A stretch of 62,144 bases of DNA, taken from a phage. The stretch lies in the sequence record PX021331.1; one strand, 5' to 3'. Made by a program: the position numbers and the translations under genes. The notes beneath the pieces were generated by a model that saw only the letters and a program-made list of their open reading frames with translations, made no database searches and was not told the origin of the DNA. Shown one piece after another: positions 39,183 to 61,487 of the stretch (its first letter is position 1; each line of letters starts with the position of its first letter).

Positions 39183-39883
39183 TATTCCACCTCTAAGTAT
39201 TTGTGAACCTGCAATTGCACAATATACCCGTGGAACTGGCATGAAGCAACAACCGCCTGAATATTTCGTTTGTTAGCCGCCGGGTCTTGCTCGTCCATTG
39301 GTTGCAGGTAAATCGGGCCACGGTAATGAGCGGGCGGACGGGCGATGTGTGGTGTAGCGCGGTGCATAAGCGCCTGCAACGGTAAACCGTCTTCCTCGCG
39401 CATGTTGCCGGCCTGTAGCACGTATTTAAAGGCGTTTGCGCGGGCTGCTACGCTGGGATGGATCTTAGCTGCTTTTGGACTGCAAACGACGGTCGCTTCA
39501 TGGTGAAGCTCCAGCGGGATCTGCATGGTGCCGTTCGTTTCAATTTGCACCTTCAACCCTTTAATATCGATCAACCAGTTAATCAGTTGAACGACTTCAG
39601 GTTGACGGAACGGCTCGCCACCAGTGATAACGATCAAGCTCGTTTTCGCTTCACCTGTTACGCGCACAACTTCGTCCCAGATTTGATAGTGCATCATGCG
39701 CTGGCGGCCTTTAGTGTATTCCGTATCACAACCAGGACACTGAAGGTTGCAGCCAGCTAAACGGATGAACACGGCGGGGTGACCACAGTACGGGCCTTCA
39801 CCTTGGATCGTGTGGAAAATGGAATGAACATCCAAATGACGGTCACGATCAATCTTCTCAGGTTCCTGAGTATTTAGTTTCAT
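39182..39883 (-). CDS. queE: 7-carboxy-7-deazaguanine synthase (radical SAM, QueE-like)
   Basis: 233 aa from internal ATG; CNLQCPGC (CxxxCxxC) cluster and ITGGEPF motif. Confidence 0.75.
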   Translation of the reverse strand: MKLNTQEPEKIDRDRHLDVHSIFHTIQGEGPYCGHPAVFIRLAGCNLQCPGCDTEYTKGRQRMMHYQIWDEVVRVTGEAKTSLIVITGGEPFRQPEVVQLINWLIDIKGLKVQIETNGTMQIPLELHHEATVVCSPKAAKIHPSVAARANAFKYVLQAGNMREEDGLPLQALMHRATPHIARPPAHYRGPIYLQPMDEQDPAANKRNIQAVVASCQFHGYIVQLQVHKYLEVE

Positions 39884-39960
39884 AGTGTGTTCTCTGTGAA
39901 TGATGCGTAATGCTTGAAGGTATGACAAATGAAGGATAGCGGACATATGAACCTCGGGGT

Positions 39961-39991
39961 AAAGATAACAAAGGGGCCGTTAAGACCCCTT
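39961..39991 (-). terminator. rho-independent terminator for the Ala/Lys-rich gene (stem AAGGGG/CCCCTT)
   Basis: Hairpin 25-50 nt downstream of the stop at 40015, followed on the minus strand by a T-rich run. Confidence 0.5.
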
Positions 39992-40014
39992 CTGAGTTGC
40001 CGAGTTTTTACTGC

Positions 40015-40902
40015 TTACTCTGCGGACTGGTTGCCGTCCTGCGCCGTTTCAGGCTGCTGGTTTGCGCCAGCTTCCGGTGCTGGTTGGCCAGCGGTCGGAA
40101 TACTTACGCTTGCGGCCGCTGCTGCGATGTTAGCCGGAACCGGAACAGCTACACGACCGCTGATACCGTTGTATTTCTTCCAGCGAGCGTATTCAGCTTT
40201 CACGTTCGCTTCGTTCAGGCCTTTTTCCAGCGCTACCGGCAGCACGTAGGAGATCGGTGCGGTTTGACCCATCGTTGCAGAGATAGCGTCAAACAGATCC
40301 CACGCAGCGCGGCACAGGGTGCCAACGGACGGTTTACGGATACCGTTCTGCTCAGGTTCTTTCTTAGACTCGCGCTCCTGGCGTTTGCGTTCCGCTTCAG
40401 CTTCGCGGTCAGCTTTTTCCTGCGCCTTTTTAGCGTCGCGGTCTTTCTTGTCCTGCTCGGCCTGGGCTTTCTTAACTTCGCCCAGCTTGTCTTTCAGACC
40501 TTTGCCAGCGGTTTCAATCGCAGCAACCAGGCCTTCAGACTCAGTAACAGCCTGTTTCAGCGCTTCGCTGTCTTTCGCTTTGCGACCGGCAGCTTTAACA
40601 ACTTTCAGACCGTCTTTAGCGGTTTTCAGGTTGTCAGCTACAGCAGTCTGAGCGGCTTTGACGTCGTCAGCGGTAGAAGTTTCGTTCAGCGCACCGATCA
40701 CAGCGTCAACGTTGCCTTTAGCAGCGGTGATGGAGTTGTAACCGTTAGTCGCTTCGGTGATAGCAGCCTGCTCTTTAGCAGCAGCGTCGTCTTTCGCTTT
40801 CTGCTCAGCGGCAGCTTTTTTGTCTGCTTCTGCTTTGTCAGCTGCTTTCTTTGCTGCTGCTTCAGCTGCGAGTTGCTCTTTAGTTTTTTCTTTACCAGCC
40901 AT
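40015..40902 (-). CDS. Ala/Lys/Glu-rich low-complexity protein with C-terminal globular domain
   Basis: 295 aa; first ~180 aa almost entirely A/K/E/D/Q; GGAG upstream; own promoter-like element and terminator; the opposite-strand ORF 39997..40908 is Phe/Ser/Leu-rich junk. Confidence 0.65.
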   Translation of the reverse strand: MAGKEKTKEQLAAEAAAKKAADKAEADKKAAAEQKAKDDAAAKEQAAITEATNGYNSITAAKGNVDAVIGALNETSTADDVKAAQTAVADNLKTAKDGLKVVKAAGRKAKDSEALKQAVTESEGLVAAIETAGKGLKDKLGEVKKAQAEQDKKDRDAKKAQEKADREAEAERKRQERESKKEPEQNGIRKPSVGTLCRAAWDLFDAISATMGQTAPISYVLPVALEKGLNEANVKAEYARWKKYNGISGRVAVPVPANIAAAAASVSIPTAGQPAPEAGANQQPETAQDGNQSAE

Positions 40903-40958
40903 TTGTAACGCTCCGTTTAGTCAGTTTGGGTGTCAGTGAACTGCTTTAATGTGTTTGC

Positions 40959-40987
40959 AGCATAGCTAATCATAAGCTGATACGCAA
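40959..40987 (-). promoter_or_regulatory. candidate sigma70-type promoter (TTGCGT-17-TATGCT) for the Ala/Lys-rich gene
   Basis: Hexamers read on the minus strand in the 100-nt gap upstream of 40902. Confidence 0.3.
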
Positions 40988-41002
40988 CTATTTAAAAGAC
41001 GA

Positions 41003-41737
41003 TTATACAATTCGCTCTTTCTGCCATGCCCCGAGCGTGTTGCTGGATGTATTACGCTTCACACCTTGCGCTTCCAATGCGTTCATAATCTCCTTACGCA
41101 GAGCGAGAACAACTTTCGGGTCTGTAGGTTTACCAGCAGCTTCCCACATATTGTCCGCAACCTCGAAGATAACGTCGCGTGTGCCGCTTGCGCGCGGCGC
41201 TGTACTGCGTTCGCCGCTGCTCGGTGCTGCTGTACTGCTGGTATCCCTGCCAGGCCTCCAAGCCGGCTGGGTGCCCGGTGTCACGGGTACGGGCGCTCCC
41301 GCCTCAATGGCAGACTCTCCAGCGTGATCTGGTAGGGTTTTGAAGAAAGGAGCCTCGCCATCATGCACAATAGGATAAGGAGCGGAACTGCTATACAAGC
41401 AAGAACCTTGCCTATCAGAGTCAATAGCCCACTGGGCTTGTGAATCACTATTCTCACCAATTTGTGTCTCCTGCATTTTGTTGAAGTAGTAGACCAGGAT
41501 TTGACATACCACATTACGCGCGTAACCTGCGCCGTCCATGTTTCCGGTCGTGTTGATGTACAGGAGCTGAAGCTGGGTATCGTCGAACTCACTTTTAAAT
41601 GCGTCCGGTTCCAGCGGCAGCACAATAGAGCACTCGCTACAGGTCAAGATCCCGTAGTCGTGCAACCGTTGCCAGTTAGGGTGCTTGGCGAGGGCACGCA
41701 TATTATCGCCATCAATTAGAATGTACATTATCACCAT
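41003..41737 (-). CDS. hypothetical protein
   Basis: 244-aa ORF; N-terminal domain, Ser/Thr/Pro-rich linker, helical C-terminus; alternative start 41728. Confidence 0.6.
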   Translation of the reverse strand: MVIMYILIDGDNMRALAKHPNWQRLHDYGILTCSECSIVLPLEPDAFKSEFDDTQLQLLYINTTGNMDGAGYARNVVCQILVYYFNKMQETQIGENSDSQAQWAIDSDRQGSCLYSSSAPYPIVHDGEAPFFKTLPDHAGESAIEAGAPVPVTPGTQPAWRPGRDTSSTAAPSSGERSTAPRASGTRDVIFEVADNMWEAAGKPTDPKVVLALRKEIMNALEAQGVKRNTSSNTLGAWQKERIV

Positions 41738-41970
41738 CCATTACATTCGTGAGCCATAGCCCAGATTTCGTCGTACGGATCAAAGTCACCATCGTCGCTT
41801 GAAGGCATGTACGCGACTTGTGATTCGTGGAACACTGCAACCCCGTGAACGAAGCGGCGAGCCTTCTCACCTTTTAGAACTCCAAAGTTAAGCTCTCGCC
41901 ACTGCCGAAACGTGCGCCACTGGCCTTCCTCTGGAGTGTGGTCATCAGCTCTAAATGTTATCTTTGCCAT
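41731..41970 (-). CDS. hypothetical protein
   Basis: 79-aa ORF overlapping the downstream gene start. Confidence 0.55.
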   Translation of the reverse strand: MAKITFRADDHTPEEGQWRTFRQWRELNFGVLKGEKARRFVHGVAVFHESQVAYMPSSDDGDFDPYDEIWAMAHECNGW

Positions 41971-41978
41971 ACGTTACC

Positions 41979-43994
41979 TCAAAACGGGATGTCGTCATCA
42001 AAGTCCATAGGCACTGGTTCACCTTTACCATTTAGCATATGGGTATTGGCGTTGAACTGCAAACTGGTAGGCTTTGCAGGTTCATCATCTTCGTCGTATT
42101 TGTTGGTGTAAGTGCCAGCACTCTTGAAGACGCTATTTTCTGCAACGACTTGCACTTCAGGGACATGCTCGCTCTTCGCTTCTTTACCGAATGCTGTACC
42201 GTCGTAACATGCGTTAAGCACATCCGGGAACTTCTTAGACATGTCAACGTAGATGTGCGTTGGTACTTTCAGTTGAGCGACAACTTCCAGCGCCTGGTCA
42301 ATACTGGTAGGAACGGGCATCGTAGTATGCTCACGCCACCAGCGACGCGCCTTGTTACCAGCGAATCCATCATGCAGTAAACAAATCCATTGGCTGATAG
42401 CGCGACCGTTGTTTCCGTCTACATGGTAGTCGACACGCAGTGTAGGCGGTTTGCTTGCGTCCCCTCTGTTGTAGTGCGCATAGTAGCTCACCAGGCTAAC
42501 GCGGAACACCTCAGTCACCGGAAGGTCATTCTTGATAATCTGTTTGGTACTTGCGCTGGCCATAAGTTTCTTCTCGAACGTAAACTCATGTCCGCAGAAG
42601 TCTTTTGCGGTAGCAATACCGTTCTTACCGCGCACGAAGTACCCGCGCAGGATAAGCTCGTTAACCTCACCGAAGGTCATGCCAGTTGTGTCGATAGGAG
42701 GTAGACCCCCACAATAACGGACTGACGCATGGTTCCACGATGAGCAGGTTGGGCACATCTTAACAGGTGCGGTGGACTTGCCTTTCTGCCCTGGACGCTT
42801 AGGCATAACAGGGTCGTTGATTGGGCCAAGGCGGCGGGTGTTACCGGAATAGTCCAGTACCAGACAGTTCTGCTTGTGTGACGCGGCTATGGCTTGCAGA
42901 CGGCCAGCAGTAGTAGACAGGTCAAACCCATCAGCATAGTCTGGGCGAGTCCCACGGCCAAGAATCTGTACCCACAACCGTGAGGATTCAGACGGTCTAA
43001 GAACGACGATAAGATCCAGGCCAGGATGGTCAAAGCCAGTAGTGAGAACGTTGTTGTTGACAACGGCGGTGATCCTTCCAGACTTAAAATCATTTATTAT
43101 TGTATCTCGTTCTTTCTTCGGGGTGTCCCCCGTCACCATTGCGCAGCTAACGCCGTGCATCTTCAGCACGCGGATAATATCTTTACAGTGCTCAACACCA
43201 GACCCAAAGATCAACCAGGATTCGCGGTTGTCCTCGCGTGCAATGTTAATCGCGTCTTCAACAAGGTACTCAGTAACCTCAGGATTGTTAACAACCTTCT
43301 GAAGCTCACTCTCAATGAATTCACCTCCGCGCTTATGTACACCGCTGACATCCAATTCTTTCTTTGTTGCCTTTGGTACTACCGGCAGCAGGTAGCCTTC
43401 ATTAATGAACCAGTTGAAGCATTCCATCGTACAAGCGTCAAACACAATTTCATCAAACATTGCGTTAGGCGCGTCATCATCCTTAACGATAGAACCGTAA
43501 CCAAGACGCCAACCTGTTGCAGTTAAGCCGATTACTTTCAAGTGTGGGTTATGCTTACGAATCTCAGCAAAGAACTTTTGATAGCTGGTCTGCTGGTTAG
43601 GACTGATCAGGTCACATTCGTCAACGATAATAATATCAACGTCTTTGAATGCTTCCGCTTTCTTAGCGACAGACTGGATGCCCGCAAATGTAATCATTGC
43701 GTTAACATCTTTACGACCGATGCCCGCGCTGTAAATACCAGCAGGAGCACCGGGCCACAGCTTCTGGAACTTATCATGGTTCTGCTCGATAAGCTCCTTA
43801 ACGTGTGTAACAACCATGGAGCGAACGCTGCCCCAATTTTCGTTGATGAACTTTAACAGACCTGCAATAACGAGGGACTTACCCGTACCCGTTGGCAGTT
43901 GGATGAGCGGGTTCCCCGACTTGTCACCATGCTTGATAAAATAACGAATGGTGGAGTCAACTGCTTCTTGTTGGTAGTCGCGGAGTTTAAACAT
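41979..43994 (-). CDS. SF2 (DEAD/DEAH-type) helicase
   Basis: 671 aa; motif I QLPTGTGKS, motif II DECD, motif III TATGWR; C-terminal Cys pair CPTCSSWNH. Confidence 0.75.
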   Translation of the reverse strand: MFKLRDYQQEAVDSTIRYFIKHGDKSGNPLIQLPTGTGKSLVIAGLLKFINENWGSVRSMVVTHVKELIEQNHDKFQKLWPGAPAGIYSAGIGRKDVNAMITFAGIQSVAKKAEAFKDVDIIIVDECDLISPNQQTSYQKFFAEIRKHNPHLKVIGLTATGWRLGYGSIVKDDDAPNAMFDEIVFDACTMECFNWFINEGYLLPVVPKATKKELDVSGVHKRGGEFIESELQKVVNNPEVTEYLVEDAINIAREDNRESWLIFGSGVEHCKDIIRVLKMHGVSCAMVTGDTPKKERDTIINDFKSGRITAVVNNNVLTTGFDHPGLDLIVVLRPSESSRLWVQILGRGTRPDYADGFDLSTTAGRLQAIAASHKQNCLVLDYSGNTRRLGPINDPVMPKRPGQKGKSTAPVKMCPTCSSWNHASVRYCGGLPPIDTTGMTFGEVNELILRGYFVRGKNGIATAKDFCGHEFTFEKKLMASASTKQIIKNDLPVTEVFRVSLVSYYAHYNRGDASKPPTLRVDYHVDGNNGRAISQWICLLHDGFAGNKARRWWREHTTMPVPTSIDQALEVVAQLKVPTHIYVDMSKKFPDVLNACYDGTAFGKEAKSEHVPEVQVVAENSVFKSAGTYTNKYDEDDEPAKPTSLQFNANTHMLNGKGEPVPMDFDDDIPF

Positions 43995-44947: not shown

Positions 44948-45011
44948 GATACCCTCAGCTTAGAAAAATACAGCGCCCTGAGGCGCTGTATGTAATTGTA
45001 AGACCTTTTTA

Positions 45012-46028
45012 TTATTCCTGCGCAGGTTTTTTCCACGGAGGCGTCTGGGACTGCGCGGCTTGCGCAATATCATCTGCCGGTTCCTGGACCTGCTGTTGCT
45101 GAGTGTTCACCTGCTGCTGGGGTTGCTCGGCGCCAGGCTGAACTTGCTGCTGTGCCCAGGTAGGTTGGCCGCCCTGCTGTTGTTCCGGCTGTTGCTGCTG
45201 TACCGGCTGCTGTTGCGGTTGCTCCTGCTGGGGTTGCTGCTGTACAGGCTGCTCCTGTTGCACCGGCTGCTGGGCCGTTTGCTGCGGCTGCTGTACCGGC
45301 TGTTCCTGCGCTGGCTGCTGGGTGTTACCGTTCTGACCCCACGGCTGAGTCTGCGCAGCCTGAGTGAAGTTCACGTTACCCTGCTGTTGAGGCTGCTGAA
45401 CGGGCTGCTGTTGCTGTACCGGCTGTTGAGCTGGCTGCTGGGTCTGCTGCGGAGCTGCCCAGCCAGGCTGAGAACTCTGCGCCGGTTGCTGCTGCGGCTG
45501 CTGGGTGAAACCCTGCTGCGGCTGCTGGACCGGTTGCTGGCCGCCGAATGCGCTGCCCGGTGCTGCCGGACCTTTGTTGATGTCCGCTTTGGTTGCGTAC
45601 ACAACGTTCGCCATATCGGAGATCGGTTTGTACTGGACCGGCTCGTTGTTGTCGTTGTAGCCTTCCTGCTTACGGATTTTGATTTTCAGGTTCAGCGGGA
45701 TTGCGTGAAGTTCCTGAGTATCGTTCCAGATCGGCTTACCAACTGCGCGAGACAGTTCCGCCAGCTCTTCCATCGCGATTTGCACCGCTACCGGATTGGA
45801 GTTCTGCACGTTGTAACCGCCGAAGATTACACGCCCAGCGAAGTCACCGGACAGCACTTTAAACTGAAGGTTCAGTCGTGCGCCGCCAGGGGTTTTGGTA
45901 GGCTTCACTTCAGAGTTAACAATCTGCACCGGATACCAGCCAGCGGGCAGTGCGTCGATCTGGCGTTCGTTGTGATCACCAGCGTTGAAGGAGAAGCCCA
46001 GTCCAGCCATTGCGAGAAGCATAGTCAT
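45012..46028 (-). CDS. ssDNA-binding-like protein with Gln/Pro-rich tail (speculative function)
   Basis: 338 aa; ~150-aa N-terminal domain, then ~180 aa of QQPxQQ-type repeats with acidic end. Confidence 0.5.
   Translation of the reverse strand: MTMLLAMAGLGFSFNAGDHNERQIDALPAGWYPVQIVNSEVKPTKTPGGARLNLQFKVLSGDFAGRVIFGGYNVQNSNPVAVQIAMEELAELSRAVGKPIWNDTQELHAIPLNLKIKIRKQEGYNDNNEPVQYKPISDMANVVYATKADINKGPAAPGSAFGGQQPVQQPQQGFTQQPQQQPAQSSQPGWAAPQQTQQPAQQPVQQQQPVQQPQQQGNVNFTQAAQTQPWGQNGNTQQPAQEQPVQQPQQTAQQPVQQEQPVQQQPQQEQPQQQPVQQQQPEQQQGGQPTWAQQQVQPGAEQPQQQVNTQQQQVQEPADDIAQAAQSQTPPWKKPAQE
45038..45578 (-). repeat. low-complexity Gln/Pro codon repeat tract inside the SSB-like gene
   Basis: Plus strand shows CTGCTG/TTGCTG-rich imperfect tandem repeats over ~540 nt. 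Confidence 0.5.
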
Positions 46029-60998: not shown

Positions 60999-61487
60999 TC
61001 ATTTGTTGTAACCGTGGAATTTGCGCCAGCCGTAGAACTCGATGGTAGCGTTGTTAATGTTCCAACCGTGTGATTCAGCGAGCGCTTTCACTTCGGTAAT
61101 GGTAATCGGCGCATCGGTTTCGCTAGCTTCCTGAACTGCTGTCAGGGTGGCCCAAACTTCTGCGCATTTACCTTTAATTGGTTTGCGCACACCGTTGCGA
61201 ACTTCGGAACGCGCTTTGCTTGCTTTTGGTTCTGCTGGTGCTGGTGCTGCGGCAGGTGCTGGAACCGCAACGGTAGCAACTTTGTCAGCTTCGATAGACG
61301 GGTTAGCAGCGCGGTTAACAGCAGCTTCGGAGAACCAGTAGCGGCCACCATCTTCCAGCGCTTCCATGTTAATAAGGGAATTTGCAACTTCGGTAGAGCA
61401 GTTGAAAACCTTTTTCAGAGCGCGACGCGCGTTAGACATGTTGGTGAAGAATTTAGCGTCTTTAGTTGGTTTGATTACAGTAGTCAT
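60999..61487 (-). CDS. hypothetical protein (first gene of the minus-strand arm)
   Basis: 162 aa; SD AAGGGG; Ala/Pro-rich linker (VAVPAPAAAPAPAEP) between two small domains. Confidence 0.6.
   Translation of the reverse strand: MTTVIKPTKDAKFFTNMSNARRALKKVFNCSTEVANSLINMEALEDGGRYWFSEAAVNRAANPSIEADKVATVAVPAPAAAPAPAEPKASKARSEVRNGVRKPIKGKCAEVWATLTAVQEASETDAPITITEVKALAESHGWNINNATIEFYGWRKFHGYNK

Follow-up and report, generated by a model that had tools for sequence, protein, structure and literature searches.

An unnamed, codon-optimised protein with a basic C-terminal domain heads the 7-deazaguanine genes of a Queuovirinae-type siphophage

The window analysed here, the whole of sequence record PX021331.1 (62,144 nucleotides (nt), one strand, 5' to 3'), is the DNA of a Queuovirinae-type siphophage. 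On its minus strand we examined a gene at 40015..40902, which encodes an Ala/Lys/Glu-rich protein of 295 amino acids (aa); the phage that carries it has 7-deazaguanine-modified DNA. We conclude that this minus-strand gene is real and encodes a conserved protein under purifying selection, which is probably an abundant, non-virion protein of the replication/DNA-modification module. Tentatively, and with less than even confidence, we take it for an architectural or adaptor protein that associates, in stoichiometric amounts, with DNA or the replisome. The gene is known as 'hypothetical' in phages 9g, CAjan and JenK1, and the design, a helical rod that carries a small basic domain, is well known; what is new is that the domain family is undescribed, large and multi-copy, and that the gene is the genome's most codon-optimised.

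40015..40902 (-): coding sequence of 295 aa with an ATG start, phrog_11298 (unknown function); identified by open reading frame (ORF), PHROG match, homologues, codon-position differences and codon bias

The phrog_11298 profile matched with E 1.5e-91, aligning residues 4-270 with profile positions 17-268 of 273, and 102 homologues of the protein were retrieved at E<=1e-3. The plus strand holds a 303-aa ORF over the same DNA (39997..40908), and an earlier, sequence-only reading of the window had named expression of the opposite strand as a finding that could overturn its account. We compared the gene with its orthologue in Klebsiella phage K9PH25C2, to which it is 79% identical. In the minus frame the differences were distributed 25/27/107 on codon positions 1/2/3, with 76 synonymous and 49 non-synonymous codons among those that differ, and in the part encoding the C-terminal domain they were distributed 2/0/15. 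Since the third positions of the minus frame are the first positions of the plus ORF, this pattern marks the minus strand as the coding one, and the 303-aa plus ORF is its shadow, a by-product of GCN/AAR/GAR-rich coding.

High, independently set expression of the gene is well supported, though only by proxy. With a set of optimal codons of E. coli type, which may not be that of the host, the frequency of optimal codons was 0.756 for the 295-aa gene against a median of 0.51; after correction for amino-acid composition, its codon-bias z of 9.4 ranked first of 72 ORFs, ahead of major head (6.9), a 162-aa paralogue (5.7) and SSB (5.3). Because this is the strongest host-type codon bias, the protein is probably very abundant. 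The following signals flank the gene.

40911..40914 (-): Shine-Dalgarno sequence GGAG, 8 nt ahead of the ATG, read from the sequence
40982..40987 (-35) and 40959..40964 (-10), (-): promoter-like motif TTGCGT-17-TATGCT, which ends 56 nt before the ATG
39960..39992 (-): terminator-like hairpin of 9 bp with 5 G-C and a T-rich tail; stem 39992..39970, between the stop codon and queE

The sequence-only reading had taken a good Shine-Dalgarno sequence, a promoter-like motif and a dedicated terminator as a sign of high independent expression, and all three elements are present. The promoter-like motif is present at 40959..40987 and agrees with a sigma-70-type consensus at 8/12 positions. A consensus scan favoured the overlapping TTTAAA-16-TATGAT (40996..40969, -), and promoter-like sites were not enriched in that scan (2 vs 1.7 in shuffled sequence). 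Since the scan was no better than shuffles, the putative promoter rests on conservation. Seven lineages, the window and loci L001-L006, were compared for flanking signals: a scripted search found a TTGnnn-16/17-TAnnnT motif 36-65 nt upstream of the orthologous ATG in six of the seven loci, and the seventh, L003, has TTGCAA-17-TATATA, read by eye only. In every lineage gaps of 67-144 nt flank the gene, with neighbours tightly packed, and in 7/7 the stretch that separates it from queE contains a GC-rich hairpin, its sequence differing and its structure kept. In the window, the minus strand has just four strong sites of hairpin plus T-run between 30 and 50 kb. This putative terminator (tail GTTATCTTTA; -21.4 kcal/mol) is one of them; another follows the gene for SSB, which is the other highly codon-biased non-structural gene. 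An Rfam search of 39800-41100 matched no riboswitch or other RNA element.

Two further structures were noted beside these signals. Directly downstream of the SSB gene, a strong 10-bp hairpin with a T-run (44968..44991, -) has the same design as that at the 295-aa gene. Around the terminator hairpin, an outer stem CUCGG/CCGAG (39946..40005, -), seen only in the window and its close relative L001, overlaps the GAGG Shine-Dalgarno sequence of queE and could further lower queE translation.

The protein, whose N-terminus reads MAGKEKTKEQLAAE..., is divided as follows.

40762..40902 (-): aa 1-47, conserved N-terminal motif EKTKEQLAAE, then an A/K/E low-complexity helix (composition; model predicted local distance difference test score, pLDDT, 95-97)
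40492..40761 (-): aa 48-137, normal-complexity helical insert, only in the family's long forms (alignment, composition, predicted helices)
40363..40491 (-): aa 138-180, K/E/R/A-rich charged helix of ER/K type (charge; model pLDDT 91-98)
40141..40362 (-): aa 181-254, conserved basic C-terminal domain, a beta-hairpin and three helices
40015..40140 (-): aa 255-295 and stop, low-confidence A/P/Q-rich acidic tail ending -SAE (pLDDT 47-74)

The prediction is of an extended helical rod, in which two near-neutral A/K/E helices flank the helical insert, followed by the basic domain and the flexible tail. In the AlphaFold2 model of the full length (57-sequence alignment, mean pLDDT 89.8) the rod is made of helices 8-70, 78-108 and 113-179; the beta-hairpin of the domain lies at 184-189 and its three helices at 196-211, 217-226 and 231-244. 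The C-terminal domain modelled alone had an unchanged topology (pLDDT 81.1). A fold search with the full-length model gave only generic helical bundles and no match at E<=0.001, and the PDB fold matches to the insert region were generic three-helix bundles. The sequence-only reading had described about 180 residues of near-pure A/K/E/D/Q, but only aa 1-47 and 138-180 are of low complexity, and aa 48-137 between them are of normal complexity. These five residues account for 91% of aa 1-47, 45-54% of aa 48-137 and 66% of aa 1-190 overall; 73% was computed for aa 136-190, a range that reaches into the conserved domain. The globular C-terminal domain that it had put at about 100 aa exists, but measures about 74 aa and is followed by a disordered tail, the isoelectric point (pI) being 4.05 for aa 251-295.

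The net charge is 0 for aa 5-47 and +2 for aa 138-180, so the A/K/E stretches are not polycationic; bulky hydrophobic residues make up 2% and 5% of them. Across 126 family members the A/K/E region has a median net charge of +5 per 100 residues and 44% charged residues. Features of ER/K helices are present, namely high charge density, near neutrality and few hydrophobic residues, and the excess of opposite-charge pairs at i/i+3 and i/i+4 is modest (z 1.6-1.8 vs shuffles). In this the stretches resemble a single helix of ER/K type, or one like TolA domain II, and not an H1-like polycation. At the two ends of the protein, a KTxEQ[IL]AAE-like N-terminal motif occurs in 83 of 246 family members (counted with a KTxEQ[IL]xA-like pattern), and the A/P-rich tails (median 22 aa) end in -AE in 64/246 and in -AA in 56/246; the N-terminal motif and the C-terminal tips may be short linear motifs.

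The C-terminal domain has the motif PEQNG[VI]R[RK]P..LC..W..D...G.P......GLNE.NV.AEYARW[RK]K[FY].G..GR and is one of a large family that has no name and is nearly confined to phages. From 1.84 billion proteins a 79-position profile retrieved 2131 representatives of clusters at 50% identity with E<=1e-3, of which 1031 had E<=1e-10, and tblastn located the domain at 210 places in 151 phage records. A stringent pattern scan of 185,579 species genomes gave eight loci, mostly on contigs of metagenome-assembled genomes, including several phage-sized contigs (55-57 kb) and two tiny ones. The domain is basic, with a median pI of 9.5 and a pI above 8.5 in 90% of 126 family members. As modelled, it appears winged-helix-like, and its closest folds include the protein-binding winged helices RPA32C, MCM-WH and cullin WHB. 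Neither the domain nor its profiles matched Pfam, NCBIfam, PADLOC or PDB sequences beyond compositional or insignificant matches (Pfam was searched with the full-length protein and, at E<=10, with the isolated domain; PDB sequences with a single sequence and two profiles). When 54 diverse family members were scanned against Pfam, the only matches were compositional ones and one weak match to HNH_repeat, and a BFVD search returned only uncharacterised family members.

Among the best 150 family members the commonest architecture is an A/K/E helix followed by the domain; others join a SAP/HeH-like or a CxxC-containing N-terminus to it or hold 2-3 tandem copies, and stand-alone forms measure 89-108 aa. 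DNA binding is compatible with the basic pI, the predicted winged-helix-like fold and the co-occurrence with SAP/HeH-like and CxxC-containing N-termini. Each genome has two or three proteins with the domain, whose N-terminal parts differ, and the window carries two more copies.

61008..61205 (-): second canonical domain copy, in a 162-aa protein (60999..61487, phrog_17772), found by tblastn and translation
41015..41188 (-): divergent domain copy, hhalign E 2.4e-4, probability 44%, 51 columns

The 162-aa protein, encoded near the upstream end of the minus-strand block, consists of an N-terminal domain of about 60 aa, an A/P linker and the canonical domain; its C-terminus matches the same PHROGs as the 295-aa protein, and its codon bias is among the window's three highest. 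The divergent copy forms the C-terminus of the upstream neighbour, a 244-aa protein (41003..41737, -; phrog_7864), behind an N-terminal domain and a P/A/S-rich linker. Direct BLASTP of the 295-aa protein against this neighbour gave no match, and the relation emerged by profile-profile comparison and from domain architectures: in P0212, P0240, P0249 and other family members, the neighbour's type of N-terminal domain is fused to a canonical domain (E ~1e-31 to 1e-24).

Queuovirinae siphophages, namely Klebsiella phages vB_Kpn_K9PH25C2 and vB_Kpn2-P2 and Escherichia phage Ec1-ASingh, match the region at about 83% nucleotide identity. In an annotated relative the order on one strand is SSB, Cas4-type exonuclease, DNA helicase, three unknown genes, QueE, Gat-QueC type, QueD, FolE, DpdA, clamp and DNA polymerase; the 295-aa gene is the third of the unknown genes and adjoins queE on its upstream side. 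We sampled the 80 best IMG/VR loci, 77 of which could be evaluated for queE. A QueE homologue begins 52-380 nt past the domain match (801 nt in one) in 77/80, the contig stopping before the queE position in the remaining three, and a ResIII helicase lies upstream in 77/80, the three exceptions being cut near the contig end. The gene lies between the helicase and queE-dpdA-clamp-polA in all 77 evaluable loci, and 40 of the 80 carry a second domain copy. The arrangement in Vibrio phage VpKK5, Microcystis phage Me-ZS1, Pseudomonas phage PSASB_03 and CAjan is equivalent; in Rhizobium phage RHEph04 a domain protein is encoded about 1.8 kb upstream of queE. Since the whole module is common to all these phages, the link to queE is inseparable from common descent. 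Locus L009 (2280-3170) encodes a 296-aa protein of three tandem domains between helicase and DpdA-clamp-PolA, and its contig stretch has no QueE, QueC, QueD or FolE. Synechococcus phage Ssp-JY38 also carries the domain, with no que gene annotated across the 14-kb stretch examined.

41979..43994 (-): DNA helicase, ResIII-type, C-terminal end DFDDDIPF

This end matches the extreme C-terminus of SSB from E. coli. The helicases of 75/77 related loci likewise finish in a tip of DD[IV]PF type, and the phage's own SSB (DUF669, 45012..46028) is without one. Docking of the C-terminal domain on this helicase tip was considered and is weakened by locus L009, which has the domain protein and a helicase without the tip. 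Nearby, a 79-aa ORF (41731..41970, -) partially matches the ArdC N-terminal domain (PF08401, E 1.3e-5, above the gathering score); this match to an anti-restriction factor looks like a stand-alone fragment.

We tentatively propose the following mechanism. The basic C-terminal domain would bind nucleic acid, or else a common replisome partner, and the helical rod would act as a spacer or oligomerisation element. With these roles for domain and rod, the protein would be made in stoichiometric amounts, like single-strand-binding protein, and would coat, organise or tether replicating phage DNA; the hairpin behind the gene would allow much more of this protein to be made than of the downstream que enzymes. 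The sequence-only reading had suggested a DNA-binding or condensing protein: DNA binding is compatible with the basic, winged-helix-like domain, whereas H1-like condensation by the A/K/E stretches does not fit their charge. It had also raised presence in virions. In the text of the study of Alteromonas phage R7M, the virion proteome is described as 13 proteins of predicted structural function and one hypothetical protein of the head-tail module (PMC8265664). Since this description, drawn from the text and not from a look-up in the table, names proteins of the structural module only, the R7M homologue is probably a non-virion protein, which speaks against a place in the particle. A literature search gave nothing specific on the family, the 'FtrA' label, virion proteomics or defence-escape mutants.

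Several observations weigh against this interpretation. No DNA-binding family was matched by sequence, the synteny with queE is confounded by the shared ancestry of the entire module, and codon bias is only a proxy for abundance, here with an E. coli codon set that may not suit the host. In addition, some orthologues seem to be exported. A positional orthologue in locus L008 (2938-3657), 39% identical and in the same synteny, begins with a Sec-type signal peptide (MNKIAFLLASAALSVPARAFA, then D), and its signal-peptide start is preceded by an AGGAG Shine-Dalgarno sequence. The 'PARAF[AD]' leader also occurs in three cluster representatives (P0220, P0247 and P0284). As judged from sequence, these signal peptides imply export in some phages. 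Hydrophobic leaders of the 'MYR.AEPG' type, present in some database members of the family, are possible start-codon miscalls, because an internal Met stands at the end of each hydrophobic stretch. Sec-type leaders are hard to reconcile with a DNA-bound cytoplasmic role family-wide, and the L008 signal peptide fits no cytoplasmic reading well.

The main rival is a docking adaptor, in which the C-terminal domain is a shared module that brings different N-terminal parts to one phage-replisome or host hub and does not bind DNA; we regard this as possible but doubtful. Two canonical copies and one divergent copy on unrelated N-terminal parts in one genome, the protein-binding winged helices among the closest folds, the resemblance of the conserved N-terminal motif and the recurrent -AE/-AA tips to short linear motifs, and the SSB-like tip of the neighbouring helicase all speak for docking. 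On the other hand, tandem arrays of 2-3 copies suggest avidity for a polymer rather than a single site, and L009 keeps its domain protein although its helicase is without the IPF tip. The other explanations rank lower. That the protein is a transcription factor controlling the que-dpdA-polA block or middle genes would agree with the winged-helix-like fold, with its constant place at the head of the que block beside promoter-like and hairpin elements, and with the label 'transcriptional activator' in some GenBank records. This is improbable in our view, as the paralogues and tandem arrays misfit a dedicated regulator and the top codon bias and SSB-like expression signals are atypical of one. 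Moreover, no Pfam match to an AraC-type helix-turn-helix or to DJ-1/PfpI backs the 'FtrA domain' label, which occurs in database annotations only.

A role as accessory factor of 7-deazaguanine modification, for instance by bringing DpdA to the DNA or making modification more extensive, was suggested by the position immediately upstream of queE in 77/77 evaluable loci and in distant phages, and by L009, where the domain protein is kept by DpdA although the genes for preQ0 synthesis are missing. In plasmids of E. coli, 9-18% of G was modified by DpdA and Gat-QueC of phage 9g alone (PMC6884629). The 295-aa protein is therefore not needed for the chemistry, and an obligatory DpdA cofactor is ruled out by these published data. 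Together with the domain of Ssp-JY38, found where no que gene is annotated, and the synteny confounded by descent, this makes an accessory role quite unlikely. An envelope-directed, TolA-like protein or mimic, as the sequence-only reading had envisaged, would account for the composition resembling TolA domain II, for the label 'membrane protein involved in colicin uptake' given by the Joint Genome Institute (JGI) to two homologues, and for the Sec-type signal peptides of some orthologues. We consider it very unlikely, and mimicry of an envelope protein is not supported, there being neither an N-terminal transmembrane anchor nor a TolA/TonB-type domain III. Least credible is DNA condensation of histone H1 type through the A/K-rich region; the high Ala and Lys content recalls H1-like tails, but the net charges of 0 and +2, and the family's low median charge despite its many charged residues, contradict it.

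A bolder extension of the proposal, which we hold to be unlikely, is that an undescribed phage-restricted module attaches varied N-terminal parts to one target and that its rod member, made in capsid-like amounts, scaffolds a 'factory' of replication plus deazaguanine modification on phage DNA. If so, the Sec-exported orthologues would point to a target that is also present outside the cytoplasm. DNA hypermodification with 7-deazaguanine has its main model in the Queuovirinae and related phages, and the gene of their replication/modification block that is most strongly expressed by codon usage is unnamed and unstudied and heads the que genes in all evaluable relatives. If the ligand of the C-terminal domain were named, be it DNA, its single-stranded form or a protein of the replisome, thousands of phage proteins now called 'hypothetical' would gain an annotation, and the organisation of replication and modification in these phages could become clearer.

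Among described phages, the nearest counterparts of the 295-aa protein are the orthologues at the same position, CAjan gp46 and ORFs of 9g, JenK1, K9PH25C2 and vB_KppS-Pokey. They are annotated as hypothetical or with unsupported 'FtrA domain', 'transcriptional activator' or 'outer capsid' labels, and a literature search on them found no experimental work. TolA domain II is likewise a long A/K/E/D-rich helix ahead of a C-terminal globular domain; aa 1-47 and 138-180 match it, and some homologues bear a TolA-like automatic annotation. Unlike TolA, the protein has no N-terminal transmembrane anchor (scanning the first 45 residues for hydrophobicity did not flag the 99%-identical cluster representative), and its C-terminus is not of the TolA/TonB domain III type. 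The ER/K single-alpha-helix spacers of myosin VI/X and caldesmon are also highly charged, near-neutral, hydrophobic-poor helices, whereas the 295-aa protein is very Ala-rich and its salt-bridge pair excess reaches just z 1.6-1.8. The nucleoid-associated proteins H-NS, Bacillus Rok and plasmid KfrA offer a further comparison. Rok and KfrA use helix-turn-helix or winged-helix-type domains; the C-terminal domain and its profile gave no Pfam, NCBIfam or PDB-sequence match to the H-NS, Rok or KfrA families, and the domain order of KfrA is the reverse of that in the 295-aa protein. Since the helical part is nearly free of bulky hydrophobics, a classical coiled-coil oligomer is doubtful, unlike in the H-NS/Rok/KfrA type. 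With these proteins the 295-aa protein nevertheless shares a long, partly alanine-rich alpha-helical region, a small basic domain and a probably high abundance.
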